Of a DNA stretch of 64,000 nt, positions 47,773 to 63,574 are shown in pieces (the stretch's first letter is position 1; each line of letters starts with the position of its first letter). The position numbers were made by a program, and so were the translations under genes. This DNA comes from Candidatus Pacearchaeota archaeon. Its GTDB lineage: Archaea > Nanobdellota > Nanobdellia > Pacearchaeales > GW2011-AR1. The DNA lies in contig JBAZOZ010000002.1 in NCBI GenBank assembly GCA_041648455.1, positions 1,531-65,530 of the forward strand, given 5' to 3'. A model generated the notes under the pieces. It saw only the letters and a program-made list of their open reading frames with translations, searched no databases and was not told the DNA's origin.

Positions 47773-48923
47773 AACAAATCTATCTCGACAATGCAGCTAC
47801 GACAAAAGTTGATGGAAAAGTTTTGAAAGCCATGATTCCGTATTTTAATGAAAAATATGGAAATGCGTCTTCACAACATCAAGTCGGACAAGAAGCAAAA
47901 AATGCGTTAGAGAAAAGCAGAAAGATAATTGCAAAGTCAATAAATGCAAAAACTAATGAAATAATCTTCACGTCGGGTGGAACAGAATCAAATAATCTTG
48001 CATTAAAGGGCTTATTTTTTGCAAACAGAGAGACTAACACAGGAAAAAATCATATTATAACAACAAGAATTGAACACGATTGTATTTTAAATTCTTGCAA
48101 ATGGCTCGAAACTCAGGGAGCAAAAGTAACTTACCTTGACGTCGATAAAGAAGGTTTTGTTAATCCGAAAGATATTGAAAATGCAATCACAAACAAAACA
48201 ATTCTTGTTTCAGTTATTCATGGAAATAACGAAATTGGAACAATTCAGGATTTGGAAGCAATTGGAAAAATATGCAAAGAAAAAAAAGTATTGTTTCATA
48301 CAGATGCCTGTCAGAGTTACACAAAAACAGATTTGAATGTTAAAAAAATGAATTTAGATTTAGTTACATTGAACAGCCATAAAATTCACGGGCCGAAAGG
48401 TGTAGGTGCTTTATATATTCGAGAGGGGGTTAAGATAATTCCATTGTTCCATGGTGGAGGACACGAAAAAAAAATACGAAGCGGAACGGAAAATGTTCCT
48501 GGAATTATTGGATTTGCCGAAGCTGTTGAAACAATTGGAAAAAAAGATTTGAAAAGAATGGAAGAATTGAGAGATAAATTAATTGATAGTGTATTAAAAA
48601 TTCCCAATACAAAATTAAACGGAGCAAGAAAAAAAAGATTATGCAATAATATTAATATTTCGTTTATGAATATTGAAGGCGAAGCGATTGGCGGGTATTT
48701 GGAAAATGAAGGAATTTATACGTCGACTGGAAGCGCGTGCCAGTCACATACTTTAGAATCAAGCCATGTTTTGAAAGCCATAAATTTGAGCCCGTTAGAA
48801 GCAAATAGTTCAATAAGAATGAGTTTAAGCAAATTTACAACGGAAGAAGAAATTGATTATGTTCTTAAAGTTCTTCCAAAAGTTGTTGAAAAATTAAGGA
48901 GGCTTAGCCCGCTTGTGAATTAA
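47769..48923 (+). CDS. iscS: Cysteine desulfurase (NifS/IscS)
   Basis: NSHKIHGPKGVGALYIR (PLP-Lys), ...C...GSAC. Confidence 0.85.
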   Translation: MKQIYLDNAATTKVDGKVLKAMIPYFNEKYGNASSQHQVGQEAKNALEKSRKIIAKSINAKTNEIIFTSGGTESNNLALKGLFFANRETNTGKNHIITTRIEHDCILNSCKWLETQGAKVTYLDVDKEGFVNPKDIENAITNKTILVSVIHGNNEIGTIQDLEAIGKICKEKKVLFHTDACQSYTKTDLNVKKMNLDLVTLNSHKIHGPKGVGALYIREGVKIIPLFHGGGHEKKIRSGTENVPGIIGFAEAVETIGKKDLKRMEELRDKLIDSVLKIPNTKLNGARKKRLCNNINISFMNIEGEAIGGYLENEGIYTSTGSACQSHTLESSHVLKAINLSPLEANSSIRMSLSKFTTEEEIDYVLKVLPKVVEKLRRLSPLVN

Positions 48924-48924
48924 A

Positions 48925-49989
48925 ATGAAAAAAATAAAATTTCCTAAAGATGAACAATCTCATGATAACATAATTGAGTGGTGGTATTTTAACGGAAATT
49001 TGAAAGACAAAAAAGGGAATAAGTATGCTTTTATGAATTGTCTATTTAAAGTTGATGTAAATCGTGTAAATATTCCCTTTCTAAAAATCCCTTTTAAAAC
49101 AGCTTATTTCTCCCACTCTCTTTTATCAGATATCAAAAATAATAAATTTTATCCAAGGGTTAGCCCCTTATCAATTGTTTCTACTGATAGTTTTTCAAAA
49201 CCCTTGCTTTTTATTAATTATACTAACCCTTCTTTAGAAGGATATACTAATTACATAATTGAGAATATTGAAAAATCCAGATATCATATAAAAACTAAGG
49301 ATATAGATTTAATACTGACTTCAATAAAAAAACCATTATTAGAGGGGGGCAAGGGATTTATAAATCTCAATCCAAAAAAAACATATTATTATTCTTTAAC
49401 TAATTTACAAACTAAAGGGAGAATAAAAATCAAAAATAAATGGATAGAAATTACAGGAAAGTCATGGATGGATCATCAGTGGGCAGATGTTCCTTATAGT
49501 GAAAATGAAAACAAATGGACTTGGTTTTCAATACAATTGCATAATAATATGGAAATTGTCTGTTTTGAATATGATGATGGAAAAAATAAAACATATTTTG
49601 CTAGTATCTCTTACCCAGATAATAAACAAAAGCATTTCTCTAAAATTGAATTTAAACCTCTCGGAAAAAAATGGAAAAGTAAAAAAACCGGAACAATATA
49701 TCCTCTTTCTTGGGAAATTAAAATCCCTAAAGAAAAAATTACCTTAGAAGTTGAGCCACTAATTAATAATCAAGAGGTGAATTTTGGAACGATTAATTAT
49801 TGGGAAGGTCCATTAAATGTAAAAGGAAAAATAGGCAAGAAGAATATTAAAGGAGAAGGATTTATGGAACTGGTTGGTTATCCTTCTGATTACACTAAAA
49901 TAAAATTCTTAAGGGATGAGGCTGCTTGGGTTTTAAAGAAATCTTTATCTTTTGTTAAAAAAGAAATCAAAAAAAATATTGGATATTGA
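48925..49989 (+). CDS. AttH/CrtC-like lipocalin-fold protein (COG5621-like)
   Basis: EWWYFNGNL...G.KYAF motif. Confidence 0.4.
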   Translation: MKKIKFPKDEQSHDNIIEWWYFNGNLKDKKGNKYAFMNCLFKVDVNRVNIPFLKIPFKTAYFSHSLLSDIKNNKFYPRVSPLSIVSTDSFSKPLLFINYTNPSLEGYTNYIIENIEKSRYHIKTKDIDLILTSIKKPLLEGGKGFINLNPKKTYYYSLTNLQTKGRIKIKNKWIEITGKSWMDHQWADVPYSENENKWTWFSIQLHNNMEIVCFEYDDGKNKTYFASISYPDNKQKHFSKIEFKPLGKKWKSKKTGTIYPLSWEIKIPKEKITLEVEPLINNQEVNFGTINYWEGPLNVKGKIGKKNIKGEGFMELVGYPSDYTKIKFLRDEAAWVLKKSLSFVKKEIKKNIGY

Positions 49990-50134
49990 AATGGGAAAAA
50001 ATAAAATTAAAGACAAATTTGAGGAAATTGGATGTGAATTTAAAAATGAAACTGCATGTGATGAAGACCTTGAGGAAGAAGATGTAGATATTGATGATGC
50101 AGAATCATCCAATTACGAAGATGAAGAATAAAAA

Positions 50135-50332
50135 ATGAAAAAGATAACAGGAAAAGAAAAAATATCTGAATTAATTGGAGACAAAAGAGTTGTTGAAGTA
50201 TTATTTGAAAATGGAATTATGTGTATGGGTTGCCATGCGGCTCCATTTGAAACTTTAGAACAAGGATGCAAAGCTCATGGAATGAGTAAAAAAGAAATTG
50301 ATAAATTAATTGATAAGTTGAACAAAGAATAA
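50135..50332 (+). CDS. Small Cys-motif redox protein (DUF1858-like)
   Basis: CMGCHAAPFETLEQGCKAHG. Confidence 0.45.
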   Translation: MKKITGKEKISELIGDKRVVEVLFENGIMCMGCHAAPFETLEQGCKAHGMSKKEIDKLIDKLNKE

Positions 50333-50333
50333 A

Positions 50334-50732
50334 ATGTCGCTACAATATTCAAAAAAATTAATGAAGCATTTCAAGAATCCGAAGTTTGTCAAGAAATTGA
50401 AGAACCCCGATGCTGTTGGCGAAGTTGGAAATATAAGATGCGGCGACATAATGAGATTAGAATTGAAAATTGATCCCAAAACTCGCAAGATAAAAGATAT
50501 TGGATTTCAAACTTTTGGGTGTCCGGCGGCAGTTGCAAGTTCAGATGTTGTTTGTGAAATTGTAAAAGGAAAAACATTGAAACAAGCAGAAAAAGTGGGC
50601 AAGGATGATATTGTAAAAAAACTCGGTGGAATGCCTCCAATAAAAATTCATTGTTCTATTTTAGGTATTGAAGCATTGAGAAAAGCAATTAAGAACTATG
50701 AGGAAAAAAATAAATTGGAAGGGAAAAAGTAA
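50334..50732 (+). CDS. iscU: Fe-S cluster scaffold IscU/NifU-like
   Basis: CGDIM.L, ..FGCPAAVASS and ...H.. motifs. Confidence 0.8.
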   Translation: MSLQYSKKLMKHFKNPKFVKKLKNPDAVGEVGNIRCGDIMRLELKIDPKTRKIKDIGFQTFGCPAAVASSDVVCEIVKGKTLKQAEKVGKDDIVKKLGGMPPIKIHCSILGIEALRKAIKNYEEKNKLEGKK

Positions 50733-50747
50733 GATGAAATATAAAAG

Positions 50748-51305
50748 ATGATAAATAAAAAGGCACCGGATATTGAATTGAGAGCTTTCCATGAAGGAAA
50801 GATAAAGAAGATTGACTTATTTGATTATCGCGGAAAATGGGTTGTATTATTTTTTTATCCTGCGGATTTTTCATTTATCTGCCCGACAGAACTCAGTGAG
50901 TTGGCCGAAAATTATGAATTGTTAAAAAAAATGAATGTAGAAGTTTTATCTATAAGCACAGATACTGAATTTGCCCATAAGGCCTGGCACGAAACATCCG
51001 AGATAATAAAAAAAGTTAAATTTCCGATGCTAGCAGATCCGACAGGCAGAATCTCCAAAATTTATGGCACCTATATTGAAGAAGAAGGACTAAGTGTAAG
51101 GGCAACTTTTATTATAGATCCCGAGGGAGTTATTAAGGCTTATGAATTTCATAATAATGATATTGGTAGAAGTATTGAAGAATTGATTAGAAAAATCCAG
51201 GCCGCGCAATTTGTAAAAGATAATAAAGGATTTGTTTGTCCCATGAATTGGAAACCTGGAAAAGAAGCACTGAAGCCAGAATTAAATATTATTGAAAAGA
51301 TATAA
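50748..51305 (+). CDS. Peroxiredoxin (2-Cys Prx, AhpC/TSA family)
   Basis: FYPADFSFICPTEL. Confidence 0.85.
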   Translation: MINKKAPDIELRAFHEGKIKKIDLFDYRGKWVVLFFYPADFSFICPTELSELAENYELLKKMNVEVLSISTDTEFAHKAWHETSEIIKKVKFPMLADPTGRISKIYGTYIEEEGLSVRATFIIDPEGVIKAYEFHNNDIGRSIEELIRKIQAAQFVKDNKGFVCPMNWKPGKEALKPELNIIEKI

Positions 51306-51556
51306 TTAGAAACTGGAATATAAATAAAATTGTAAGAATAAAAATATGGCAGATAGAAAACGCAGAAGTTTATTGAAAGCAATAAGTTGGTGATTCGTTG
51401 CAGTGTTAATTACATTTGTAATAAGTTTTATTATAACTAAAGAAATCCTTATTGCAGCAACAATCGGCTTAACTGACAGCTTTATTAAGATATTTGCATA
51501 TTATTCCCATGAAAGACTTTGGGAGAAGATAAATATTTGGAGAGTTAAAAACTAAG

Positions 51557-52222
51557 ATGAAAAAAATAGGAAATTTTTTACCCCATTCAAATCAAGAAAA
51601 TTTGAAGGTGAAGAAAATTGAACTTTCAAAATTAGAATATCCCTATGATAGTCTGGAGTCATACATCGACGAGAAAACAATGGAAATTCATCACGACAAA
51701 CATCATCAAACTTATGTTGATAAATTCAATGCACTAATCGAAGCGAATAAAGAATTAGAAGGAAGAACACCCAAAGAGATAATTATGGATATTGAAGATG
51801 TTGACGAGAAAATAAGAACTGCTGTAAGAAATCATGGTGGCGGAGTTATTAATCATAATTTTCTCTGGAAAATCTTGAAAAAGAATACAGAACCTAAGGG
51901 AAATATTCTTAAGGAAATAGAAAAAGAATTTGGAAATATTGATAAATTTAAAGAAGAATTTAAAAAATCTGCCATGAGTTTATTTGGAAGTGGCTGGACT
52001 TGGCTAGTTCTTGACGACGGCAAATTAAATATCATTAACACATCAAATCAGGATTCTCCATTAAGTATGGGAATGATTCCATTATTAACAATTGATTTGT
52101 GGGAACATGCATATTATTTGAAATATCAAAATAGAAGAGCAGATTATATTGATAATTTTTTTCATGTGATTAATTGGGAGAAAGTAAATGAAATATTCTT
52201 GGAGGAAAATGTGAATGGATAA
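51557..52222 (+). CDS. sod: Fe/Mn superoxide dismutase
   Basis: HHDKHHQTYV and DLWEHAYY motifs. The first 20 codons lie in an AGGAA array, so the true start may be GTG at 51617. Confidence 0.85.
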   Translation: MKKIGNFLPHSNQENLKVKKIELSKLEYPYDSLESYIDEKTMEIHHDKHHQTYVDKFNALIEANKELEGRTPKEIIMDIEDVDEKIRTAVRNHGGGVINHNFLWKILKKNTEPKGNILKEIEKEFGNIDKFKEEFKKSAMSLFGSGWTWLVLDDGKLNIINTSNQDSPLSMGMIPLLTIDLWEHAYYLKYQNRRADYIDNFFHVINWEKVNEIFLEENVNG

Positions 52223-52739
52223 AGCGATAAAAATTCTTGTTGACGAGCATAAAAATATCTTAAAACTAGCTGATGCTCTTGAAAAAGAATGTAATAAGAT
52301 TAAATCTGGAGAAAAAGTTAATGAAGATTTCTTTAAGAAAGTTATAGATTTTATAAGGAATTATGCGGATAAATTTCACCATGCTAAAGAGGAAGATATT
52401 TTATTTAAAGAATTCTGCAAGACTGCAGAAAAAGGATGTTTGCATTGTAATCCTGTTGAACAAATGTTATATGAACATGATATTGGAAGAAAATTTGTTA
52501 GGGGAATTGAAGAAGGAATAAAAGAGAAGGATAAAAGAAAAATTGTAGAGAACTCACTTGGTTATGTCAATTTAATAAGAGAGCATATTTTCAAAGAAGA
52601 TAATATTTTGTATCCTATGGCAGAAAATTCATTTGATAAAAGAACCAAGGAAGAAATTCTAAAAAAGTTTAATAAAATAAGTAAAGATAAAAAAATTGAA
52701 GAAAGGAAATATTTTTTATTTGTGAGGGGATTAAATTGA
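52215..52739 (+). CDS. Hemerythrin-like HHE cation-binding domain protein
   Basis: H..I...A..L, FHHAKEE, YEHDIGR and REHIFKEDNILYPMAE motifs. Confidence 0.65.
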   Translation: MDKAIKILVDEHKNILKLADALEKECNKIKSGEKVNEDFFKKVIDFIRNYADKFHHAKEEDILFKEFCKTAEKGCLHCNPVEQMLYEHDIGRKFVRGIEEGIKEKDKRKIVENSLGYVNLIREHIFKEDNILYPMAENSFDKRTKEEILKKFNKISKDKKIEERKYFLFVRGLN

Positions 52740-53038: not shown

Positions 53039-53509
53039 ATGGAAAACAAATCTGTAGGATTATTAATTATTGGAATTGCAGTTGTAATGGTAATTATAGT
53101 TATTATTTTTAATTTTGCATTAAATTCTATTGTTGGAGTATCATGCAGTATGGGGTCATCATGCACGATGTATGATACAATAAAGGTTCAGACATGGATA
53201 AGTCTTGCAATTGTTGCAGTTATATTTATAATAGGTTTAATTATAATGTTCTCAAAACCAAAAGAGAAAATAGTAATTAAGACAATAAAAGAAAAGAAGA
53301 AAAAACTAAATCTTGATGGGTTGGATAATAAAGAAAAAGAAGTTGTGAAAATTCTTGAAGAAGAAAATGGAACAATATTTCAAGCAACATTAATGGAAAA
53401 GATTGGAATTGGAAAAGTTGGAATTACTCGCTTGTTAGATAAGCTTGAAGCAAAACAAATTATTGAAAGAAAACGACGTGGGATGAATAATGTTGTTGTT
53501 TTACGCTAA
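53039..53509 (+). CDS. Membrane-anchored winged-helix transcription regulator
   Basis: Two TM segments then KEKEVVKILEEENGTIFQATLMEKIGIGKVGITRLLDKLEAKQIIER. Confidence 0.5.
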   Translation: MENKSVGLLIIGIAVVMVIIVIIFNFALNSIVGVSCSMGSSCTMYDTIKVQTWISLAIVAVIFIIGLIIMFSKPKEKIVIKTIKEKKKKLNLDGLDNKEKEVVKILEEENGTIFQATLMEKIGIGKVGITRLLDKLEAKQIIERKRRGMNNVVVLR

Positions 53510-53922: not shown

Positions 53923-54351
53923 ATGAAAAGCTCAATAGTTATTTTATTAGTAATTGTAGCGATACTGGTAATTGGTGGTGTTTTTTACATTGCTATAGGT
54001 AGCAATCCTTCTTCTAAGAATATTGAAGGAACTGGCACTCAGAATTCTGGAAATGAAATAGATAGTAATACTCCAAGTGAAACTAATACTAACACTCCAA
54101 AAACATATAATACAGAGATAAAGAATTTTGCATTTAATCCTATAACTTTAACTATAAAAAAAGGAGATAGTGTTAAATGGACTAATATAGATTCTGCAAA
54201 ACATACAGTAACTTCTGATTCTGGAAATGAATTAGATTCTGAATTGCTGACGAATGGAGAAACATACTCACATACATTTAATGAAGTTGGAACCTATAAT
54301 TATCATTGTGCACCACATCCTATGATGAAAGCAAAAATAATTGTTCAATAA
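53923..54351 (+). CDS. Plastocyanin/azurin-like blue copper protein (cupredoxin), membrane anchored
   Basis: N-terminal TM; H...NYHCAPHPMMKAKIIV (Cys-X2-His-X2-3-Met type 1 Cu site). Confidence 0.7.
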   Translation: MKSSIVILLVIVAILVIGGVFYIAIGSNPSSKNIEGTGTQNSGNEIDSNTPSETNTNTPKTYNTEIKNFAFNPITLTIKKGDSVKWTNIDSAKHTVTSDSGNELDSELLTNGETYSHTFNEVGTYNYHCAPHPMMKAKIIVQ

Positions 54352-54553: not shown

Positions 54554-54982
54554 ATGGAAAAAATATCAGAAGCGATGTTAATTGAGCATCAAAGATTGTA
54601 TAATCTCTTGGAAAGATTAGAAAAAAATTTAGATGGTAATGACAAAAATTGGAAAGAATTATTTAATGAATTTAAATGGAATTTAGAAAAACATTTTTTT
54701 GTTGAGGAGAAAGCAATATTTGACTTGTGCAATTCTGATTGTGGAGAAAGAATTCCAGAGATATTTGATTTAATGAAAGAACATGGGGAAATTATTTATT
54801 TGATGAATGAAATTGATGATGAATTAGATGATAATCTTAAAAAAAACTTGTTGGAGATTAAGAGAATGTTAATTAAACATTCTAATTCTGAAGACGAGAG
54901 TTTTTATCCATTATTAGATGAAGAATTAAGCGAAGAAAGAAAGTTAGAAATTTTATCTCGAATTAAAGAAATTGTTCATTAA
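54554..54982 (+). CDS. Hemerythrin-like domain protein
   Basis: EHQRL..LL, LEKHFFVEE and HSNSED motifs. Confidence 0.55.
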   Translation: MEKISEAMLIEHQRLYNLLERLEKNLDGNDKNWKELFNEFKWNLEKHFFVEEKAIFDLCNSDCGERIPEIFDLMKEHGEIIYLMNEIDDELDDNLKKNLLEIKRMLIKHSNSEDESFYPLLDEELSEERKLEILSRIKEIVH

Positions 54983-55487: not shown

Positions 55488-56147
55488 ATGGACGAACAAA
55501 AAAACAATGCAGTAATTGTAAAGAAAACTGATTGGGAGTTTTTCCTTCAGGTAGGAATAGTTATTGTGCTCGCAGTACTGTTGTTTTATAATGTTAATAA
55601 GACAGGAAATGTTACTGGTGGAGTTATCGGAACAGTATCTGCTTCAGAAATAATTCCTAAGGGAGTTCCAGAGATTTACGGAAAAGAATTAGGAGTTAGT
55701 TACGACGGTGTTTCTACAAGTAATCCGCAATTGGCAGATACAACTATTGAAATTCTTTCTAATATTGATAGAACTGTGACCTTGACAGGAGATGATTTGC
55801 AGAGATACATTAAGATTGGAAGTATGATTGCATGTGAATATTGTTGTGGTGCAGAGACATTAGTTTTTAGCAATGGACAACCTGCATGTGGATGTGCTCA
55901 TAGTTATTCTATGAGAGGATTAGCTAAATATCTTATCAAAAACCATGGAGATGAATTTACAGATGATCAAATCCTTGAAGAGCTTGGAAAATGGAAGGTT
56001 TTATTTTTTCCAGGGGTGCATGAACAAAAAGCAGCGATATTGAAAAGTCAAGGAATTGAACTTAGTTATATCAATTTAGCAAGCAACAAATACCGTGGAA
56101 TTGAACAAGGACAAACATCTGACGGAGCAATGGTAGGTGGCTGTTAA
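55488..56147 (+). CDS. Membrane-anchored Cys-rich protein ending in MVGGC (CEYCCG...CGC motif)
   Basis: TM LQVGIVIVLAVLLFY; CEYCCGAETLVFSNGQPACGCAHS; C-terminus ...GQTSDGAMVGGC. Confidence 0.5.
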   Translation: MDEQKNNAVIVKKTDWEFFLQVGIVIVLAVLLFYNVNKTGNVTGGVIGTVSASEIIPKGVPEIYGKELGVSYDGVSTSNPQLADTTIEILSNIDRTVTLTGDDLQRYIKIGSMIACEYCCGAETLVFSNGQPACGCAHSYSMRGLAKYLIKNHGDEFTDDQILEELGKWKVLFFPGVHEQKAAILKSQGIELSYINLASNKYRGIEQGQTSDGAMVGGC

Positions 56148-56189
56148 AGTGGATTGCTATTGCACAAATGAAAACAAGGAGAGAAAACA

Positions 56190-56420
56190 ATGGATACAAA
56201 GAAATTAATTTTATGGATTGTTATTGCTATACTTGCAATTGCAATAGTTTATGTAGTGTTTTTCAAAACAAGTGGCACAGCAGCTGCAGTATCTGGTGGG
56301 AAAATTGATACAACTGGTTGGACAGAGAATGAAAAGATGAACTATGAAATGCATGGGACAATCCCTGCACGAGTTGGAAGCAGTACATCGAGCGGATCAG
56401 GTATGGTGGGAGGTTGTTAA
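56190..56420 (+). CDS. Small membrane peptide with C-terminal ...SGSGMVGGC
   Basis: AAGGAGA SD; TM ILWIVIAILAIAIVYVVFF; ends GSGMVGGC. Confidence 0.5.
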   Translation: MDTKKLILWIVIAILAIAIVYVVFFKTSGTAAAVSGGKIDTTGWTENEKMNYEMHGTIPARVGSSTSSGSGMVGGC

Positions 56421-56488
56421 TTTGAAAGATTGTTGTTCTCCCACACCTAATAACAAAGAAATGAAAGGAGGAAAAATTCATATATAAA

Positions 56489-56644
56489 ATGGACAAAAAA
56501 ATCATTTTGTGGATAATAATAGCTATCCTTGTAGTTGCAGTGATATACATAACCTTTTTTAGAGGCGGTTCAACAGGAAGTGCAATAAGTGCTGTACAAT
56601 CTGCTGGGCAAACTGCATCTAGTGGAATGGTTGGTGGCTGCTAA
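56489..56644 (+). CDS. Small membrane peptide (51 aa) with C-terminal ...SSGMVGGC (not in ORF track, below 60 aa)
   Basis: Hand translation MDKKIILWIIIAILVVAVIYITFFRGGSTGSAISAVQSAGQTASSGMVGGC*. Confidence 0.45.
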   Translation: MDKKIILWIIIAILVVAVIYITFFRGGSTGSAISAVQSAGQTASSGMVGGC

Positions 56645-56914
56645 AATATTTATTTTTTTGATTTTTTATTTTTCATAATTAGTAAAGAAATTGCTTAAAA
56701 ATTCACAATCCCACCGTTCGCTGATGCTCACTTCGGAGCAAGCTCGGGAGTATTTGTGAATTTTTTGCTTTGCACCAGCAATTTCAGTCTCCAGGAAAAA
56801 ATAGATATTTTTTCAGGGCCATTCAAAATCATAGATTTTGAAGGTTCCAAATCTGGCACAGCAAGCTGTGGGGTATTGACCCAGATTTAGAAACAAAGAA
56901 AATGCAAATATAGA

Positions 56915-57121
56915 AAACAAAATAGTTTTCTATCCCTAAAAATTGAGAAAGTCTTAAGGAAACAGGAAATTTTTAAGATGAAAAAAATAACAAATTTTTT
57001 ACCTTTTCAAATCAGGAAAAATTTAAGATGCGGAAAACAGGAATTTTCCGTCTCGTTAAAAACAGGAAATTTTTAAGATGAAAAAAATAACAAATTTTTT
57101 ACCTTTTCAAATCAGGAAAAT
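56915..57121 (+). repeat. AGGAA-core module array containing a 101-nt direct duplication (56957..57017 and 57058..57118), upstream of 57122
   Basis: aaacaggaaatttttaagatgaaaaaaataacaaattttttaccttttcaaatcaggaaaa occurs twice. Confidence 0.8.
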
Positions 57122-57574
57122 TTGAAAATGAACAAAAAAATAACGATTATAATATTAGTAATTTTATTAACTGTGTTTGTTGGAGCATATTTAATAAAAC
57201 AAAAAGATCCAAGAATCCCCATTACTATTTATAAAACCCAAAGTTGCGGATGTTGCGAAGGTTTTATATCTGAATTAACTAAAGGTGGATTTGATGTTAA
57301 AATGAATGTTGAGGATAATATAGATATAAAAGGAAAATATAACATTCCAGAAGAAATGCGAAGTTGTCATACTTCTTTTGTTAAGGGTTATTTTGTAGAA
57401 GGACATGTTCCTCTTGAAGCTATAAATAAATTAATTGAAGAATCTCCTGAAATTGATGGGATTGCATTACCTGGAATGCCTTCTGGTTCTTTGGGAATGC
57501 CAGGAATAAAAGATGGACGACTTAAAATATATTCTATCACCAATGGAACAGCTTCTATTTTTATGGAAATATGA
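57122..57574 (+). CDS. CopG/DUF411-like metal-binding protein (membrane anchored)
   Basis: N-terminal TM; CGCCEGF and CH motifs. Confidence 0.55.
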   Translation: MKMNKKITIIILVILLTVFVGAYLIKQKDPRIPITIYKTQSCGCCEGFISELTKGGFDVKMNVEDNIDIKGKYNIPEEMRSCHTSFVKGYFVEGHVPLEAINKLIEESPEIDGIALPGMPSGSLGMPGIKDGRLKIYSITNGTASIFMEI

Positions 57575-57712
57575 AAGAATTTCCTACTTTCAACATGGAA
57601 AATAAGAGATTTTCCATGCCATTCAAAACAAAAAGTTTTGAAGGAAACAGGAAGTTTTCAAAATGTGAAAAACTTCCTATTTTTCACCTTTTAAATTCAG
57701 GAAGAATTCAAA

Positions 57713-59224
57713 ATGAATGCAATTAACAATCTTTTAAAGAAAAGGTGGAATCCATTTGCTTTCAGAGTTGTTTCTCTTATTGTTTTTATCTTTATAATAA
57801 TTATTCTTTATCTTGGATCTTTGAAATTAATTTTTAATTTTAATAGTAATTCAGTTATGTTCATTTTGTGGACTTTGTGGTGGCCATTTTTGTATATTAG
57901 TTTATTATTTCTTGGGAGATTTTGGTGTGGTTTTATTTGCCCGATTGGGTTGTCAAATGAAATGGGAAATTCTATTAGAAAGACAAAAAAAGATTATCTG
58001 ATAAAATATGGATTTATTCCTTTTGTGATATTCTTTCTAATTGTGTTCTGGGAGCAGGTTTCTGGATTGTTCTCGTCGACAAAAATAACTTTAATTTTTC
58101 TGGCAACTTTTCTTATCTCCTCTTTTATTGCAGGTATTTTAATGCCTAGATGGGGATTTTGCAAACATTTTTGTCCTATTGGTTCTTTGTTTGGACCCTT
58201 TAGCAGACTTTCTTTTTTAAGTATCAGAACAAATAGAGAAATTTGTAAGTCGTGCAAAACGAAAGAATGTATTAGAGGAGGAAAAGTTGAGCCATGTCCA
58301 ATGTTTAATGATGTTCCTAATTTAAACAGCAATAAAGATTGTCTTTTATGCACTAATTGTATAAAAAATTGCCCGTATGATTCTGCTAAATTAAGTTTTG
58401 TAAAACCAGGAGAGGAATTAATTAAGAAATCAGGATTTAATCTTCCGGAATCTTTGTTTATTATAGCCTTGCTTGGATTTAGTGTTTTATTGACGACAAG
58501 AGGAACCAATATTTTTAGATTAATTGAATTTAGCGGAGTTTGGATAAGAGCGTTTGATTTTGTATTTGGAATCGGGTTCTTTATTTTGGCTTATTTTATT
58601 ATAACCTATATTTCGACTAACTTAGACAAAGGAAATAAAAATTTTAAAATCAATTTAATAAATGGAGGATATGTATTTTTACCTTTGGTTTTTTCTTTAA
58701 TGTTTTTCTTAATTGTCTTTGGATTTATAACTCCCTTAACCAATATAGATGGAAATATAATTGCTTTGAGTAAATATACTCTCTTAGGCATCGGAGGAAT
58801 TTGGGGCTGGAAACTTGCAAAAGATATTTTTGAAAAAAGAAATTTTGTTTATAGAATTTCAATAATCTTGATTATATTATTCTGGGTTTTGGCTTTAATT
58901 CCAGGTCCATTAAATATTTTTCCAGATAATACCGGAATTTATTTTGCAAAAAGAGGCGAAACAATTAATATGAGAGCGTTTAGTATGGGATTTGATCCTA
59001 CAGTAATTAAGATTGAATCCGGAGAAGGATTTGATATAAATGTGACAAACCAAGATATGGTTCATTCCTTTGTTATTAATGAATTAAATATCAGTGTTAA
59101 TATTCCTAGCGGGAAAAATAGGCTTATAAGGTTTGGTAATCTTGAAAAAGGAAAGTATGAATATTATTGTGCAATTCCAGGACATAAGGAAGCTGGAATG
59201 AAAGGAGTGTTAATTGTGGAATAA
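57713..59224 (+). CDS. Polytopic membrane protein with 4Fe-4S ferredoxin motifs (NapH/CcoG-like polyferredoxin) fused to a C-terminal cupredoxin domain
   Basis: CLLCTNCIKNCP (Cx2Cx2Cx3CP) and CKSCKTKEC. C-terminus GKYEYYCAIPGHKEAGMKGVLIV. Confidence 0.65.
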   Translation: MNAINNLLKKRWNPFAFRVVSLIVFIFIIIILYLGSLKLIFNFNSNSVMFILWTLWWPFLYISLLFLGRFWCGFICPIGLSNEMGNSIRKTKKDYLIKYGFIPFVIFFLIVFWEQVSGLFSSTKITLIFLATFLISSFIAGILMPRWGFCKHFCPIGSLFGPFSRLSFLSIRTNREICKSCKTKECIRGGKVEPCPMFNDVPNLNSNKDCLLCTNCIKNCPYDSAKLSFVKPGEELIKKSGFNLPESLFIIALLGFSVLLTTRGTNIFRLIEFSGVWIRAFDFVFGIGFFILAYFIITYISTNLDKGNKNFKINLINGGYVFLPLVFSLMFFLIVFGFITPLTNIDGNIIALSKYTLLGIGGIWGWKLAKDIFEKRNFVYRISIILIILFWVLALIPGPLNIFPDNTGIYFAKRGETINMRAFSMGFDPTVIKIESGEGFDINVTNQDMVHSFVINELNISVNIPSGKNRLIRFGNLEKGKYEYYCAIPGHKEAGMKGVLIVE

Positions 59225-59271: not shown

Positions 59272-60354
59272 ATGGATAATAAAATGTATAAAAAATATAT
59301 TCGCCAAAGATTATTTAAGTCTGATCCTGAAAGTATTCACAATTTAATAATCTATTTAGGAAGAGTTATGGCTTTCACTAAGCTCTCAAGATTATTAAGA
59401 TTTAATTTTGTTTTTAAGGATAAAAGACTGGAAAATGAAATTATGGGAATCAAATTTGAAAATCCCGTCGGACTTTCTGCTGGTTTTGATAAAAATGCGC
59501 AACTTACAGATTTTATTCCTGATTTAGGATTTGGATTTATAGAGATAGGGAGTGTTACTGCAAATTTTTGTGAAGGAAATCCAAAGCCAAGACTTCATCG
59601 GCTTGTAAAAGATAATGCAATTATTGTTCATTATGGTTTAGCAAATCAAGGTGCAGAGAAAATTTATCAAAGATTGAAATATAAATGTTTTAGAATCCCT
59701 CTTGGAATTAGTATTGCGAAAACAAATGATTCTACAATAAAAGGGGAGAAAAGTGTGGAAGATTATTTTAAGAGTTTTGAATTGTTAAAGAATATTGGAG
59801 ATTATATTACAATAAATATAAGTTGTCCTAATTCAGGAGACGGGAGAAGTTTTGAAGATCCTTTTTTACTGGAGTCCCTATTAAAAAAAATTGAAAAGGT
59901 TAGAAGGAATGAGAAGATAGTATTAAAAATTTCTCCAGATATTAATGAGGGAGATTTAAATTCTATTATTAACCTTTCAAAGCGATACAAAATAAATGGA
60001 TTTATTATTAGTAATCTATCAAAAAAAAGAGAAAATCTCAGCGAAGATGAAAATCTAAAATATGTTGGTGGAATTAGCGGAAGGCCCGTTCAATATAAAT
60101 CAGATGAGTTAATAAAGAAAGTTTATAAGAAAACAAAAGGAAAATTTGTGATTATTGGCTCTGGAGGAATATTTAGTGGAGAAGACGCCTATAGAAAAAT
60201 AAAAAACGGAGCAAGTTTAATTCAATTAATAACCGGAATGATTTATGAGGGCCCAGGAATTGTAAAAAAGATTAATCGGGAAATAGTTGAATTGCTAGAA
60301 AAAGATGGGTTTAATAATATTCAGGAAGCTATAGGAATAAATGCTCGAAACTAG
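59272..60354 (+). CDS. pyrD: Dihydroorotate dehydrogenase (quinone-type, PyrD family)
   Basis: FENPVGLSAGFDKNA, IEIGSVT, ...NISCPN and GSGGI motifs. Confidence 0.8.
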   Translation: MDNKMYKKYIRQRLFKSDPESIHNLIIYLGRVMAFTKLSRLLRFNFVFKDKRLENEIMGIKFENPVGLSAGFDKNAQLTDFIPDLGFGFIEIGSVTANFCEGNPKPRLHRLVKDNAIIVHYGLANQGAEKIYQRLKYKCFRIPLGISIAKTNDSTIKGEKSVEDYFKSFELLKNIGDYITINISCPNSGDGRSFEDPFLLESLLKKIEKVRRNEKIVLKISPDINEGDLNSIINLSKRYKINGFIISNLSKKRENLSEDENLKYVGGISGRPVQYKSDELIKKVYKKTKGKFVIIGSGGIFSGEDAYRKIKNGASLIQLITGMIYEGPGIVKKINREIVELLEKDGFNNIQEAIGINARN

Positions 60355-60614
60355 TTACACCAAACCTTTTATAATAACTATTGATTAAGTTGATTAATGA
60401 AAAGAAGGTATTCGTTCCCCTCAAATGAGACAAAGATTAATGAGAGACAAAGTAATTCAGAATATTGAACGAAAATTAAATTTATCGTAAATAAACAAAG
60501 AAGGAGAAAGTTAAATGAAAAAAATAGAAATTTTTTACCTCTCAAACTTAGGAAAAGTTCAAGATACAGAAAATAGGAAATTTTCTGTCTCATTAAGAAT
60601 AGGAAATTTTTAAG

Positions 60615-61691
60615 ATGAAGATAAAGAATATATTAAAAGATGAAAAAATATTGACAATTATAATTGCTGTTTTGGTTGTTTTATTTGCAATTTTATTATC
60701 GTTTCCAAACATGACTAGTCCTATAAAAGATATTATGAGTAAAGAAAAAATTTATTCTGTTGATATTATTAAAATTAATGGGTGTGATGATTGTTTTGAT
60801 TTAAATAGGGTATTAACTGTTGTGAAAAAAGATAATAGCATAGAGATAAAAGAAATTAAAGACTTAGATTACAAAAGCAAAGAAGCAGAATCATTAATAA
60901 AAGAATATGGAATAAAAACAACCCCTGCCCTAATAGTAAAATCAAGGGGAATAGAAAAAAGAGAATTCAACAAAGAAATATTTTCCTCAGGTAAAAATTA
61001 TCTTCTTTTCGATAAGTCAGTTCCATATTTAGATTTGTCTTCTGGAGAAATTAAAGGAAAGGTTGATTTTAAAGAGATTCAGGATAGTTCGTGTAAAGAA
61101 TGCCCAAGTTTATCCTCGCTAGAAAAACAATTAGAAGCCCTTGGTATTAAAAAGAAAAATTATGAAATAATTGATTCATCACAAGAAGAAGGAAAGAAGT
61201 TAATAAAAGATAATAACATTAGATTTTACAATAATTTAATTATAGGAAAAGAAATTAAGGCATATTGGTGGATATTTCCAAGTTTGAGTAAGGCATTGAC
61301 AGAAGAGAAGGATTATTATGTATTTTCAGAGCCGATTGTGTATCCTTATAAAGATGCAATTACGGGTATGATTAAAGGAAAAGTAGAAGTAATTTATGTT
61401 ACAGCAAATGACTGTAATGATTGTTCTAATGTTTCAGTTTTAAAAGAAGATTTTGAAAAATCCGGCGTTTATATTGCTAAAGATAAATATATTGATTACT
61501 CGTCGGGAGAAGGGAAACAGATAACTTCTAATTATAATATAAATGCTGTGCCAACAATTATACTTTCAAAAGAGATATTAGATTATCCCAGATTATCAGA
61601 AACCTTGAAAGAATTAGGGACTTTTGAAAAAGACGATTCTTTTGTTTTTAGAGAATTAAAAAAATTAAATCTAAAATATAAAGAAATATGA
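60615..61691 (+). CDS. Membrane-anchored protein with two thioredoxin-fold CxxC domains (extracytoplasmic thiol-disulfide oxidoreductase)
   Basis: N-terminal TM; INGCDDC...TTPALIV and VTANDCNDC...NAVPTIIL. Confidence 0.55.
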   Translation: MKIKNILKDEKILTIIIAVLVVLFAILLSFPNMTSPIKDIMSKEKIYSVDIIKINGCDDCFDLNRVLTVVKKDNSIEIKEIKDLDYKSKEAESLIKEYGIKTTPALIVKSRGIEKREFNKEIFSSGKNYLLFDKSVPYLDLSSGEIKGKVDFKEIQDSSCKECPSLSSLEKQLEALGIKKKNYEIIDSSQEEGKKLIKDNNIRFYNNLIIGKEIKAYWWIFPSLSKALTEEKDYYVFSEPIVYPYKDAITGMIKGKVEVIYVTANDCNDCSNVSVLKEDFEKSGVYIAKDKYIDYSSGEGKQITSNYNINAVPTIILSKEILDYPRLSETLKELGTFEKDDSFVFRELKKLNLKYKEI

Positions 61692-62131
61692 ATTTAAAAA
61701 CAAAAGCCGTGAGTTATGGAGTTTTGGCAATTGTTATAGTTTTGGGTTTGAATTTTACAATTTTATATTTATTGAATTTCCCTTCGATGGCAACTGAAAT
61801 AATTCAAAAATATTGGATTCTCATAGTTTTATTAATTGGAGGTTTTGGTTTGCAGATAGGATTATTTACTTATTTCCGAGGATTGAATGCAATAAGCTGT
61901 TCCACAACTGTTGCTTCTGGAAGTATATCCAGTGTGAGTATGATCTTGTGTTGTTCTCACTATTTACTAAATATACTTCCTTTTTTAGGAGCGGTCGCTG
62001 GAATTTCAGGATTAACCGCGTTATCAAAATATACTTTACAATTTTTAATTATCGGAATAGTTTCTAACATCTTTGGTGTGGGGGTTATTTTTTATCAATC
62101 AAATAAATTTAGGAAGTTGAGGAAATATTAA
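61688..62131 (+). CDS. Integral membrane protein (possible disulfide-bond formation partner)
   Basis: Four TM segments; CC pair (MILCCSHY). ATGA overlap with the upstream gene. Confidence 0.45.
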   Translation: MNLKTKAVSYGVLAIVIVLGLNFTILYLLNFPSMATEIIQKYWILIVLLIGGFGLQIGLFTYFRGLNAISCSTTVASGSISSVSMILCCSHYLLNILPFLGAVAGISGLTALSKYTLQFLIIGIVSNIFGVGVIFYQSNKFRKLRKY

Positions 62132-62368
62132 ATGGAAAATAAATTTTTAATTTTTGGTGTTGTTTCTTTAGTTGTCCTGTTAAGTATTGCGGTTGTTATA
62201 AAATTAAATAGAACTGGAGATGCAATCAACAACGAAGATTTAAACAAATATAGGTCTGAGAAAATTCCGCAGGAGTGCAGACTTTCACAAGGAGAAAATC
62301 TCCAATCATGGAAAGAACATTTGGGACATCATCAGGATACACTTTACTGTCTAGATTATTATAAATGA
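62132..62368 (+). CDS. Small membrane protein (78 aa)
   Basis: N-terminal TM. Confidence 0.35.
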   Translation: MENKFLIFGVVSLVVLLSIAVVIKLNRTGDAINNEDLNKYRSEKIPQECRLSQGENLQSWKEHLGHHQDTLYCLDYYK

Positions 62369-62496
62369 AAATACAAAAATTTCTAATTTTTGTCCTTCAA
62401 AAACAAGAAGTTTTAGAAGAAATAAGAAATTTTTTGTCTTTTACAAATAGGAAATTTGAAAAATAAAAATGGAAAAATTGAAAGGAGGTAAACAAC

Positions 62497-62652
62497 ATGG
62501 ATAAGACTGCTTGGATTTTGTTAATAATTTTATTAGTTGTTATTGGTGTTTTTGCAATTATCTCGTTTGGATCTGATGGGGGAGGTAGTACTGGGAGCTC
62601 AATTGCCTACTCATCTGCAAATCAGTACAGTGGGGGCGGATGTGGTAGATAA
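62497..62652 (+). CDS. Small membrane peptide (51 aa) ending ...SGGGCGR, related to the MVGGC family (not in ORF track)
   Basis: GAAAGGAGGTAAA SD; MDKTAWILLIILLVVIGVFAIISFGSDGGGSTGSSIAYSSANQYSGGGCGR*. Confidence 0.4.
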   Translation: MDKTAWILLIILLVVIGVFAIISFGSDGGGSTGSSIAYSSANQYSGGGCGR

Positions 62653-62667
62653 TTAATCTAATTTAAA

Positions 62668-63123
62668 ATGGAATTTAAATGCAATATTTGTAATAGAAAT
62701 TTTAATTCAGAAGAAAGTCTGAGACAGCATAATGAAATGAAACATCGTATTGAAGAAAAAAAGGCGAAAATAAATATGAGAAAATATATTATAATATCTT
62801 TATTTGTATTAATTGTTCTCTTTTCTATTCTTACAATTAGCTCTTATATGAAAAAACCTGGGAAATTTGATGAGTTTGCACAATGTCTGACTGAAAAAGG
62901 CGCTGTGATTTATGGGAATGATTACTGTCAATATACTCTAAAACAGTTTGGAATGTTTGGAAAATCCAAGAAATATCTTAATTATGTAAAATGTATAGAT
63001 AATGAAACATTATGCGACACTAAAGGAGTTAAAATAACTCCAACATGGGAAATTAAAGGACAGACGTATGAACAAGTTCAAAGTTTTGAAAAATTATCTG
63101 TTTTAAGCGGATGTGAAATATAA
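62668..63123 (+). CDS. C2H2 zinc-finger plus TM plus thioredoxin-like domain protein
   Basis: FKCNICNRNFNSEESLRQHNEMKH, TM, ...ITPTWEI. Confidence 0.45.
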   Translation: MEFKCNICNRNFNSEESLRQHNEMKHRIEEKKAKINMRKYIIISLFVLIVLFSILTISSYMKKPGKFDEFAQCLTEKGAVIYGNDYCQYTLKQFGMFGKSKKYLNYVKCIDNETLCDTKGVKITPTWEIKGQTYEQVQSFEKLSVLSGCEI

Positions 63124-63259
63124 ATGGAAAAATTGAAAGGAGGTAAATAAAATGAGTTGTTGTGGCGGAAAAAAGAAAGGAAAGAAGAAGTAGAAGAGAT
63201 TAAAAAATATGTCTAATTGTACAAAAGATATTTAAATATTAGAGTATTCTAATATACTT

Positions 63260-63574
63260 ATGGATAAACTTTATGAAATTCATGCGGAAATGTGTAAAAT
63301 CTTCTCTAATCCAATTAGATTGGAAATCTTAAATTTATTGAGAGATAAAGAAATGTCTGTAACCGAGATTATAAATAAATCAAAATTAAGTCAAGCGAAT
63401 ATATCTCAACATTTGTCAATAATGAAATCGAGGGGGATTGTTGCAGCAAATAGAAAAGGCAAGAATATATACTATCGGATTACAAATCCAAAGATTATCA
63501 AAGCATTTGATATTATAAGAGAGGTTCTAGTTGAAAAATTAAAAAGAGATAGGAAATTGTTAATTAAATTATAA
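63260..63574 (+). CDS. ArsR/SmtB-family transcription regulator
   Basis: FSNPIRLEILNLL...MSVTEI...LSQANISQHLSIMKSRGIV. Confidence 0.75.
   Translation: MDKLYEIHAEMCKIFSNPIRLEILNLLRDKEMSVTEIINKSKLSQANISQHLSIMKSRGIVAANRKGKNIYYRITNPKIIKAFDIIREVLVEKLKRDRKLLIKL

Follow-up and report, generated by a model that had tools for sequence, protein, structure and literature searches.

The Mer thiol relay runs over MerP, MerT and the C-terminal cysteine pair of MerA, and the swinging arm of SoxY bears the motif GGCGG. In copper chaperone systems the donor (CopZ or Atx1) and the acceptor (the HMA domain of a P1B ATPase) share a cysteine motif, permitting ligand exchange. Proteins of the CopG/DUF411 family bind a tetranuclear copper cluster via a CxCC motif and two methionines (PMC7558416), and SoxY carries its intermediates on the cysteine of the swinging arm (PMC5336275). 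Here we describe an operon of a DPANN archaeon that probably encodes an undescribed cell-surface copper or thiol carrier system. It lies in a window of 64 kb, the whole stretch of DNA analysed, and its three genes, all on the forward strand, encode protein A (55488..56147; 219 aa, ending DGAMVGGC), protein B (56190..56420; 76 aa, ending GSGMVGGC) and protein C (56489..56644; 51 aa, ending SSGMVGGC). Further downstream on the same strand, protein D (62497..62652; 51 aa, ending SGGGCGR) has a related layout, and each of the four proteins begins with one N-terminal hydrophobic helix followed by a Ser/Gly/Thr/Ala-rich linker. The initial annotation had described these ORFs, with coordinates, translations, transmembrane (TM) helices, linkers and C-termini that agree with ours, as one family of four small peptides. 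B, C and D are indeed small, but A is a 219-aa domain protein, and instead of a single family we find a domain protein (A), two partners tied to it (B and C) and an independent GGGCGR family (D).

The likeness of this system to SoxY, namely a single cysteine next to Gly-Gly on a flexible C-terminal arm that would be offered to partners outside the cytoplasm, is a resemblance only. SoxY itself is a soluble protein of beta-sandwich fold that partners SoxZ in sulfur oxidisers, whereas here the arms sit on membrane helices or on a helical Cys-rich domain in a copper context; none of A to D matched a SoxY profile in NCBIfam or Pfam, AlphaFold2 (AF2) gives a helical model for A, and B and C lack any globular domain. 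As in copper chaperone systems, the putative donor and acceptor share a cysteine motif suited to ligand exchange, CopA, CopZ, DUF411 and cupredoxins are encoded in the same clusters, and Cys-rich motifs of the CxCC type occur as in CopG. Unlike those chaperones, the tail proteins have neither a ferredoxin-like HMA fold nor an MxCxxC motif (PF00403 matched none of A to D) and present a terminal pentapeptide on a disordered tether predicted to lie outside the cell. With the Mer relay the system shares cysteine motifs on both sides of the membrane, flexible C-terminal Cys tails and a possible soft-metal handover; it differs in having no Mer homology, no MerA and a single tail cysteine rather than a vicinal pair. 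Three further candidates were tried and set aside: a sortase, archaeosortase or exosortase signal (LPXTG, PGF-CTERM), as the motif is at the extreme C-terminus and the sole TM helix is N-terminal; a CaaX or Rab-type prenylation box (Cys at -4, or a CC or CXC end), as the single Cys is the last residue; and an AviCys-type RiPP precursor, as the N-terminus is a TM helix and no such enzymes were found among the recurrent neighbours checked.

A, B and C form a single operon, and a six-frame scan of the whole 64 kb found no ORF ending in MVGGC beyond these three. The transcription unit probably ends at a hairpin followed by a U6 run (56697..56768, forward strand), which is preceded by T-tracts (56650-56680), has a minimum free energy of -26.5 kcal/mol (z = -4.2 against shuffles) and a GC content of 45% against 31% for the window; Rfam gave no match from 52 to 64 kb, this hairpin included. 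The strong GGAGG site that the initial annotation had placed before all four genes holds for C and D only, A having GGAG and B AGGAG, and that of C lies 17 nt from the ATG, within a candidate micro-ORF of uncertain status in the gap between B and C (56422..56487, forward strand; 21 codons with a TTG start; LKDCCSPTPNNKEMKGGKIHI). An ATG-started homologue, MKDCCSPTSTEEKMKGGI, occupies the equivalent place in locus L006, and related M-x-CC Lys-rich ORFs lie directly 3′ of the MVGGC stops in six other loci. A scan for sigma-70 promoters and terminators was discarded as uninformative for an archaeal host, and the repeated CAGGAARTTTTY was rejected as an island-specific operator on account of its enrichment throughout the window (34 hits versus 7.1 expected).

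Protein A consists of a short N-terminal stretch predicted to be cytoplasmic, a TM helix (residues 16-37 in the AF2 prediction), a linker, a helical ectodomain, a Ser/Gly stretch and the terminal M215-V-G-G-C219. Its ectodomain carries the invariant cluster C116-E-Y-C119-C120-G ... C134-G-C136-A-H138 (IACEYCCG...ACGCAHS). The family numbers 1,934 clusters, all without annotation and mostly from genomes labelled as DPANN archaea; a bacterial homologue is an FKBP fusion with a Sec signal that ends MPNMVGGC. Searches of A to D against Pfam and NCBIfam gave sub-threshold noise only, and 50 homologues of A searched against Pfam at E ≤ 10 yielded no recurrent family and no PF03918. The predicted structure of the ectodomain may resemble that of the periplasmic thiol oxidoreductase CcmH, although A has no detectable membership of the CcmH/NrfF/CycL sequence family (PF03918; PDB 2hl7, 2kw0). 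A PDB sequence-profile search with A returned spurious TM and coiled matches, CcmH chains being absent at E ≤ 10, Foldseek of the model against PDB found nothing at E ≤ 0.001, and the hhalign alignment with a two-sequence CcmH profile, which places C116-x-x-C119 on the CPKC of CcmH, has a non-significant probability of 1.5%. Compared with CcmH, A has CxxCC and an inserted hairpin with CGCAH, and adds an N-terminal subdomain and the C-terminal Cys tail. Ccm and Nrf families were absent from the annotatable recurrent neighbours in 82 loci (families with a window member or a Pfam-scanned representative), and a c-type cytochrome context was not seen there. The last 19 residues of A have a pLDDT of 74-82, indicating an ordered tail, which in the model is compatible with docking on the protein's own domain.

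The tail itself is strikingly constant. All 120 of the closest A homologues end in MVGGC, as do 118 of the 120 best among the 401 homologues of B and 100 of the 101 small ORFs found 3′ of A in 74 other genomes, a degree of conservation that lies far beyond chance. Among the 150 best-scoring A representatives at 50% identity, 125 end in G-x-C, with the consensus L-P-x-[M/Q]-V-G-G-C; none of those 125 departs from G(-2) or the terminal C, V(-3) occurs in 113, and position -4 is occupied by M in 87 cases and by Q in 33. The terminal Cys behind Gly-Gly is the most conserved feature of the family, and conservation of this kind singles out the tail as its functional core. Tail ORFs are obligatorily paired with an A-domain gene: one to three small ORFs consisting of a TM helix, a linker and the tail lie less than 1.5 kb 3′ of A in 72 of 74 species-representative loci, and in about 1.1 Mb of fetched loci such ORFs were seen only beside A-domain genes. 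The pairing extends to exceptional arrangements, as in L018, where extra tail ORFs adjoin a second A-like gene, and L028, where an A-like domain has no tail of its own and the next ORF supplies it. The tail variant also co-varies between A and its partner, with QVGGC on both proteins in L087 and in L088. A mutual-information scan of A-domain columns against the M/Q switch showed no clear coupling and is confounded by phylogeny. No relevant paper on the tail or on the Cys-cluster motifs of A emerged from a full-text literature search by motif strings.

Protein B is predicted by AF2 to have its TM helix at residues 3-25 and a short helix at 46-55 in an ectodomain motif, D-T-T-G-W-T-E-N-E-x-M-N-Y-E-M-H-G-T-I-P-A-R, followed by the Ser/Gly linker and MVGGC, which at pLDDT < 50 are disordered. 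Its invariant residues are W44, E48, M50, N51, Y52, M54, H55, P59 and M72-C76. The motif E-x-M-x(2,3)-M-H occurs in 30 loci, and the Met/His motifs that accompany tails, E-x-M-N-Y-E-M-H in B, EMMARMHP in L085 and EQMNERMH in L088, are typical of Cu(I) sites. Protein C is the minimal, tail-only partner (a TM helix, a Ser/Gly/Ala/Gln linker and MVGGC), and most of the 74 loci that could be tested have an equivalent ORF of about 50-57 aa directly 3′ of A.

The operon sits within a copper/thiol homeostasis island, mainly in genomes labelled as DPANN archaea, and Pfam agrees with the plastocyanin-like, CopG/DUF411-like and polyferredoxin-cupredoxin neighbours named in the initial annotation (all gene positions that follow are on the forward strand). 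The membrane-anchored cupredoxin at 53923..54351 is of the plastocyanin/amicyanin type (PF00127, E 1.4e-14). The gene at 57122..57574 belongs to DUF411/CopG by both its PF04214 match (E 5.4e-23) and its CxCC motif; its product has an N-terminal anchor, C-G-C-C (SCGCCEGF) and a GMPxGSxGMP stretch. DUF411 is the most frequent annotated neighbour of A plus tail, lying less than 3 kb 3′ of A in 38 of 62 loci and less than 8 kb 3′ in 23 of 35. A NapH-like polyferredoxin membrane protein with a C-terminal cupredoxin fusion (57713..59224; PF12801, PF13473, TIGR02163) comes next, as it likewise follows DUF411 in L018. When neighbour families were built by single-linkage clustering with low-complexity masking and coverage limits, the family of 53039..53509 was found less than 8 kb 5′ of A in 33 of 39 loci. 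Its product has two TM helices, a C-x5-C-x-M loop on the extracytoplasmic side and a winged-helix domain on the cytoplasmic side (DUF7343/MarR-like according to a Pfam scan of a representative), and is a candidate for the island's membrane-bound sensor and regulator. Tail genes in other genomes also keep company with P1B ATPases, less than 8 kb from A in 19 of 35 loci, which bear CPC (25/27), YNx4P (26/27) and MxxSS (26/27), the signatures of the Cu(I) type; L087 encodes a CopZ-like HMA protein, a Met-rich membrane protein with an HMA fusion, a secreted Met-rich protein and a cupredoxin as well. The 64 kb of the window contain no P1B ATPase. Also encoded in the island are CxxC membrane proteins, M-x-CC micro-ORFs and proteins with the C-termini ECCKE or CCKKW.

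We tentatively favour, with somewhat less than even confidence, a reading in which the products of the A-B-C operon are thiolate carrier arms, extracytoplasmic and tethered to the membrane, from which Cu(I) passes to the Cys cluster of A. Each protein would use its one N-terminal helix as an anchor and a flexible Ser/Gly linker to present a free-carboxylate [M/Q]-V-G-G-C, whose terminal thiolate may bind Cu(I) or another soft metal, assisted by the Met thioether, the unhindered Gly-Gly backbone or both. By ligand exchange the metal would then move from the tail to CE[YF]CC...CGCAH on the CcmH-like ectodomain, a direction of transfer that is presumed, and A may serve, or be served by, the adjoining DUF411/CopG protein, cupredoxins and Cu(I)-exporting P1B ATPase, with B contributing a second, Met/His site (E-x-M-N-Y-E-M-H). 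The extracytoplasmic placement of tails and ectodomains is suggested by the Sec signal of the FKBP fusion homologue and by neighbours that are anchored or secreted cupredoxin and DUF411 proteins; docking of a tail on the cysteine cluster is suggested by pLDDT values, and metal binding, like the identity of the metal, is inferred from sequence and gene context. The Met/His motifs that accompany the tails speak for the carrier-arm reading, as do homologues whose cytoplasmic N-terminus is His-rich or begins M-x-CC. The novel metallochaperone or metallophore-like family proposed in the initial annotation fares differently in its two parts. A metal-ligand or chaperone role is the best-supported one for the tail proteins, whereas a metallophore or secreted peptide is unlikely because the anchors look uncleaved, no conserved modifying or export enzymes lie nearby and one member is a folded protein of 219 aa. 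Two aspects of the tail weigh against the carrier-arm reading. Gln replaces Met(-4) in about a quarter of representatives, and Met is therefore not an obligatory Cu(I) ligand; and the near-invariance of Val-Gly-Gly exceeds what metal ligation usually needs, so that recognition by an enzyme or a tight pocket would fit equally well.

A redox role is conceivable because the island is equally rich in thioredoxin-like, DsbA-like and VKOR genes, which recur there, and because of the missing P1B ATPase in the window. The terminal Cys could then form mixed disulfides or persulfides with the CxxC(C) of A, the arms shuttling reducing equivalents or sulfur between the membrane and extracytoplasmic thioredoxin-like partners, and the link to copper would be an indirect one, through repair or prevention of copper-catalysed thiol damage. 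Such a thiol-disulfide or sulfane-sulfur carrier would resemble the GGCGG arm of SoxY, the C-terminal arm of DsrC and the shuttle cysteines of Erv/Ero, and the Gly-flanked Cys on a flexible C-terminus does mirror the SoxY arm. The adjacency of the GGGCGR tail of D to thioredoxin-like genes points the same way, as do the window's upstream genes, which are oxidative-stress genes in a neighbourhood that holds IscS, IscU, peroxiredoxin, SOD and hemerythrins. The alignment of C116-x-x-C119 with CPKC would also favour it, but its probability is just the 1.5% given above and the structural search was empty. Moreover, the loci examined yielded no recognisable Sox, Dsr or Ccm genes, and among annotated neighbours it is copper proteins, not redox enzymes, that recur most constantly; a tail with one Cys is unable to cycle alone, and the Met/His motifs near the tails are left unexplained. 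We consider this alternative rather unlikely.

We are a little more doubtful still of a reading in which [M/Q]VGGC-COOH is a portable, trans-acting module, the tails of A, B and C either entering the CE[YF]CC/CGCAH pocket of A to form or service a composite metal/redox centre, or carrying a covalent adduct on the terminal Cys. Were either version true, ultrasmall archaea would bear on their surface a split-site or carrier-arm system of a kind not described before, with a bacterial outlier.

The shared tail could instead have no chemistry of its own and mark proteins for one modification by a dedicated enzyme, such as S-lipidation, a cut after Gly-Gly or covalent attachment to the envelope or to the surface of a host. 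Five near-invariant residues shared by a domain protein, a motif peptide and a bare linker peptide that are otherwise unrelated would suit such a processing or attachment signal, as would the L-P before the tail in divergent members and the use of one tail variant per genome across its tail proteins, as in L087 and L088. It is nevertheless improbable: no modifying enzyme is universally linked, the best candidate, an HCPLC membrane protein, being absent from the window and from L018; in the 1.1 Mb of fetched loci the tails do not mark diverse cargo but stay with A-domain genes; and the motif is followed by no TM helix or basic cluster, unlike exosortase, archaeosortase and sortase signals, and has Cys as its last residue, unlike a CaaX box. 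That B, C and D give rise to ribosomally made peptides that are modified and then released (metallophores, or AviCys-type products of the C-terminal Cys) is scarcely credible, for although the ORFs are small, with a C-terminal Cys, a Ser/Thr/Gly-rich core and a metal-related cluster, their N-terminus is a conserved TM helix and not a leader peptide, the tail also occurs on a folded 219-aa protein, the linkers vary freely with the last five residues alone fixed, and no flavoprotein decarboxylase, dehydratase, YcaO, radical-SAM or peptidase/exporter was found among the recurrent neighbour families checked.

Hundreds of tiny-genome DPANN archaea retain the operon beside copper-handling genes, and its products are all annotated as ‘hypothetical’ and lack models in both Pfam and NCBIfam. 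Should the tails prove to be copper or thiol carriers, the operon would define the way in which these episymbionts, which have no classical periplasm, deal with a toxic, redox-active metal outside the cell. Membrane-tethered terminal Gly-Gly-Cys docking on a CcmH-like Cys cluster would, if borne out, be a new solution to metal trafficking. The invariant five-residue end makes the proteins easy to target in proteomics and peptide chemistry, and could serve to annotate about 2,000 A-family and several hundred B-type clusters.

Protein D belongs to a separate, syntenically distinct family with a GGC tail, which adjoins thioredoxin-like genes and not A. It comprises a TM helix, a Ser/Gly linker and a terminal Y-S-G-G-G-C-G-R. 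A word-index homology search with D gave one relative only, because the peptide is of low complexity, and the rest of the family came from the fetched loci, 11 of which, besides the window, hold tails of the form GGGCGR, GAGCGR or GGGCGI (one of these is a duplicate record). Upstream of D, on the same strand, lies a gene for a membrane-anchored thioredoxin-like protein with C-x-x-C motifs and weak thioredoxin-family matches (60615..61691), which keeps its synteny with D in further loci, L003 and L018 among them. It is followed by a four-TM membrane protein with conserved C-S-T-T ... C-C-S-H motifs and no Pfam match (61688..62131, forward strand) and by a 78-aa anchored protein with the motif C...W-x-E-H-[LM]-G-H-H...C (62132..62368, forward strand), whose families occur less than 8 kb 3′ of A in 24 and 17 of 35 loci, respectively. 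D is always followed by a gene whose product combines an N-terminal C2H2 zinc finger with a TM helix and a thioredoxin-like ectodomain (62668..63123, forward strand). A family that clusters with the ORF at 46907..47215 (PF01022 match) is represented by the ArsR/SmtB-type (HTH_5) regulator at 63260..63574 on the forward strand, and is found less than 8 kb 3′ of A in 12 of 35 loci. Between these two genes, the 13-codon ORF MSCCGGKKKGKKK (63152..63193, forward strand) lies behind a duplicated GGAGG leader, as had been noted initially, the two copies (62461-62499 and 63116-63154) being 92% identical over 39 nt; five close counterparts of MSCCGGKKKGKKK occur in L003 (two copies), L010, L034 and L037.

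Translation of the window reproduced exactly the four forward-strand ORFs of the initial annotation and their C-termini: A (55488..56147, 219 aa), B (56190..56420, 76 aa) and C (56489..56644, 51 aa), each ending MVGGC, and D (62497..62652, 51 aa), ending GGGCGR. A six-frame scan of all 64 kb (GC content 31%) found no further MVGGC-ending ORF, and a homology search matched the A protein at full identity to an entry, named only as hypothetical, from a Candidatus Pacearchaeota MAG, which makes the source a DPANN archaeon. The intergenic gaps are 42 nt (A-B) and 68 nt (B-C), and T-tracts lie 3′ of C, ahead of a stable hairpin and its U6 run (56697..56768, forward strand; minimum free energy -26.5 kcal/mol, z = -4.2), so that A, B and C look like a single transcription unit. 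The hairpin (GC 45%; 12-bp outer stem, inner CUUCGG-loop hairpin, U6 thereafter) has no match in Rfam and looks like either the terminator of this unit or a small RNA. Strong GGAGG sites had been described before all four ORFs; the full motif is present for C and D, but not for A and B. That of C lies 17 nt 5′ of the ATG, within a 21-codon TTG-initiated ORF, LKDCCSPTPNNKEMKGGKIHI (56422..56487, forward strand), which sits between B and C and has an ATG-started homologue in the same place in L006 (7172..7228), one of the loci fetched from other genomes and designated here by L numbers.

Conservation in homologues indicates that A, B and C and their C-terminal motif are genuine. Homologues of A form 1,934 clusters at 90% identity, for which no source offers a functional name; all 120 of the best end in MVGGC. 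Fifty of these 120 share 52 invariant columns, including C116, E117, C119, C120, G121, C134, G135, C136, A137 and H138, together with K168, W169, F173, F174, P175 and the tail itself (M215-C219). B has 401 relatives, with MVGGC ends in 118 of the best 120 and a second invariant block, D-T-T-G-W-T-E-N-E-x-M-N-Y-E-M-H-G-T-I-P-A-R. An exhaustive profile search over 1.84 billion representatives gave 301 matches at E <= 1e-3, with a G-x-C terminus in 125 of the best 150; most of the other 25 look like gene-calling truncations or extensions. Among the 125 the consensus is L-P-x-[M/Q]-V-G-G-C, with Met (87) or Gln (33) at position -4 and an invariant Gly at -2 and terminal Cys, and the CE[YF]CCG...CGCAH core is retained throughout the representatives.

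The tail ORFs (small genes encoding a TM helix, a linker and the tail) are closely tied to the A domain. A scan of GTDB species representatives yielded 241 stretches encoding a relative; the top 80 belong to genomes that carry the labels Pacearchaeota, Woesearchaeota, Nanoarchaeota, Micrarchaeota and Aenigmatarchaeota. Among the 74 of these loci with at least 400 nt 3′ of A, 72 carry small tail ORFs within 1.5 kb downstream (one in 44 loci, two in 27, three in 1), and 100 of the 101 downstream tails read MVGGC. The partner is of B type, with an E-x-M-x(2,3)-M-H motif, in 30 loci; the remainder are of C type, consisting of TM helix, linker and tail and nothing else. Every tail ORF in the ∼1.1 Mb of fetched loci adjoins an A-type gene, including a second, divergent module in L018 with a 250-aa A-type protein ending LPGMVGGC and a 72-aa partner ending NLPGMVGGC. 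The A-like domain of L028 (15828..17036) is joined to a multi-TM N-terminal domain that bears GICPVCQ; it lacks the tail, and the next ORF (17064..17279) encodes a 71-aa peptide ending NLPSMVGGC. In the two QVGGC loci examined, L087 and L088, A and its partner both carry the variant. AlphaFold2 models gave pLDDT values of 74-82 for the last 19 residues of A and below 50 for the linker and tail of B. Adjacency, the split in L028, the matched QVGGC ends and the contrast in modelled confidence thus link tail to domain; the last of these would fit a tail that is disordered unless docked on the A domain. In L028 the upstream genes include a BlaI/CopY-type repressor and an M48-type peptidase-like gene.

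The model of A (mean pLDDT 86, pTM 0.74) comprises a TM helix (residues 16-37) and a helical ectodomain. In an hhalign profile comparison with two sequences of CcmH, a periplasmic thiol oxidoreductase (identity checked against PDB 2kw0 and 2hl7), A ...DLQRYIKI...CEYCC aligned with CcmH ...QFRQLTEELRCPKC such that the CxxC motifs coincide, with a probability of only 1.5%; neither HMMER profile searches nor Foldseek detected a relationship. We therefore describe the A domain as resembling CcmH in its predicted fold and in where the motif falls, without counting it as a member of that family. In a bacterial homologue from a Desulfobacterales bin (L086, 8034..9416), which starts with a Sec signal peptide, the A domain is fused to a periplasmic-type FKBP domain; the protein ends MPNMVGGC, and no small tail ORF or DUF411 gene lies nearby. 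Because of this fusion, the anchored or secreted neighbouring DUF411 and cupredoxin proteins and the Ser/Thr/Gly-rich linkers, the tail proteins are predicted to be N-in, C-out, which we consider likely.

The typical gene order is a TM-wHTH regulator (window 53039..53509), A, tail ORF(s), DUF411, a membrane protein with an HCPLC motif at its mature N-terminus, a protein ending ...ECCKE or ...CCKKW, and the families of window genes 61688..62131 and 62132..62368. The proximity to cupredoxin and CopG-like genes noted initially extends to other genomes: among loci long enough to judge, DUF411 (38/62) and the HCPLC protein (46/62) lie within 3 kb downstream of A, and a P1B ATPase (19/35), a cupredoxin (14/35) and a Met-rich membrane protein (15/35) within 8 kb downstream, with the TM-wHTH regulator within 8 kb upstream in 33/39. 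CPC, YNx4P and MxxSS, which we take to be signatures of Cu(I)-type P1B-1 ATPases, are each present in 25-26 of 27 ATPase copies. L087 holds the full set: ArsR and wHTH regulators, A, tail peptide, HCPLC protein, ...DCCKEW protein, DUF411, Met-rich protein, cupredoxin, CopZ-like HMA protein, HMA-fused Met-rich membrane protein and CopA-like ATPase. The regulator family has homologues in 65 loci, almost always just 5′ of A; its proteins combine two TM helices with a Cys-x(5-9)-Cys-x-M loop outside the cytoplasm and a DUF7343/MarR-like winged helix inside it, and are candidates for one-component transmembrane sensing of metal or redox state.

The window island (the copper/thiol cluster around A, B and C) lacks the HCPLC and CCK proteins; in their place, as in its close relative L018, are NapH-like polyferredoxin-cupredoxin, PyrD and thioredoxin-like proteins. 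Directly upstream is a redox-stress block (47769..52739) encoding IscS (cysteine desulfurase), IscU/NifU, peroxiredoxin, a SOD that is Fe/Mn-like by its own sequence and by clustering with the Sod_Fe_C family of L003, and a hemerythrin-family protein (52215..52739) that clusters with the hemerythrin genes of other loci; a second hemerythrin lies inside the island (54554..54982). The operon has comparable flanking genes in L001 and L003. The gene for dihydroorotate dehydrogenase (PyrD) sits within the copper/thiol island both in the window (59272..60354) and in L085 (12378..13580), where it adjoins VKOR and DoxX genes; this may hint that PyrD and the NapH-like polyferredoxin-cupredoxin share an electron route linked to quinones.

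What does not vary is the terminal Cys after Gly-Gly, carried on a flexible tether. Such a terminus could form a soft-metal site in which the thiolate would be helped by the Met thioether, the terminal carboxylate or the unhindered Gly-Gly amides, as seen in N3S Gly-Gly-Cys chelators and the Cys-Gly-Cys site of acetyl-CoA synthase. Alternatively, it could act as a covalent carrier arm of the type of SoxY, whose carrier Cys is Gly-flanked. SoxY has a swinging arm (PMC5336275). We favour, tentatively and at somewhat below an even chance, a putative role of the tails in carrying copper, because the neighbourhood holds a set of copper genes, DUF411 among them, because Met/His motifs accompany the tail, and because cytoplasmic N-termini are His-rich or M-x-CC. 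In CopG, the bacterial homologue of DUF411, a CxCC motif together with two Met residues holds a tetranuclear Cu cluster (PMC7558416). The CcmH resemblance of the A domain and the thioredoxin, DsbA and VKOR neighbours support instead a thiol or sulfur redox carrier, a clearly less likely reading. A processing or attachment signal would account for the rigidity of V-G-G, but no linked enzyme was found and diverse cargo bearing the tail was not seen in the fetched loci, which leaves this doubtful. That the tail ORFs are RiPP precursors is highly improbable. The proposed working principle would resemble that of known carrier arms and metallochaperones. For the architecture itself, in which one invariant terminal pentapeptide is shared, both in cis and in trans, by membrane-tethered chains grouped about a CcmH-like domain with its Cys cluster, we found no described counterpart. 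The tail-protein family has no Pfam or NCBIfam model, all source names shown for A and B homologues are "hypothetical protein", and the motifs of tail and domain have no mention in the searchable literature.

D, initially grouped with A, B and C, belongs to a family of its own with a different tail (TM helix, linker, Y-x-G-G-G-C-G-[R/I]), present in the window and, beyond it, in eleven of the fetched loci, one a duplicate record, and located between thioredoxin-like genes wherever the neighbourhood was inspected. The 13-aa ORF MSCCGGKKKGKKK (63152..63193) is conserved in sequence in L003 (14341 and 14904), L010 (18085), L034 (9824) and L037 (11602), mostly with its GGAGG spacing, as an M-[GSC]-CCG-[GS]-poly-Lys micro-ORF. 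At least 11 loci encode tail-anchored peptides (33-55 aa) in which M-x-CCG and a His-rich stretch precede a C-terminal TM helix, and peptides of reverse polarity ending ...KKKGGCC(G) also recur. Six loci (L042, L059, L060, L061, L062 and L077) have a Lys-rich M-x-CC...GCCK ORF (36-44 aa) immediately 3′ of an MVGGC stop codon, and a C-type peptide of L035 (1388..1558) combines a cytoplasmic-end MNCC, a TM helix and an outer-end MVGGC. Short Cys-motif peptides thus abound in the island at both membrane faces, which fits a soft-metal and a thiol relay alike.

Two repeats were also observed. The motif CAGGAARTTTTY is strongly enriched in the window (34 matches with at most one mismatch vs 7.1 expected), with copies, several of them intergenic, at for example 1177..1264 (four at 25-nt spacing), 57648, 59231 and 60574; since it is spread across the entire window, an island-specific operator was ruled out. 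Tandem units of ∼50 nt, each with AGGAAA, ATG and the first codons MKKITNF..., lie upstream of the DUF411 gene, with copies also upstream of the polyferredoxin, thioredoxin-like and D genes (56940..57130, 57600..57715, 60517..60624 and 62416..62465), and look like decoy or duplicated gene starts.
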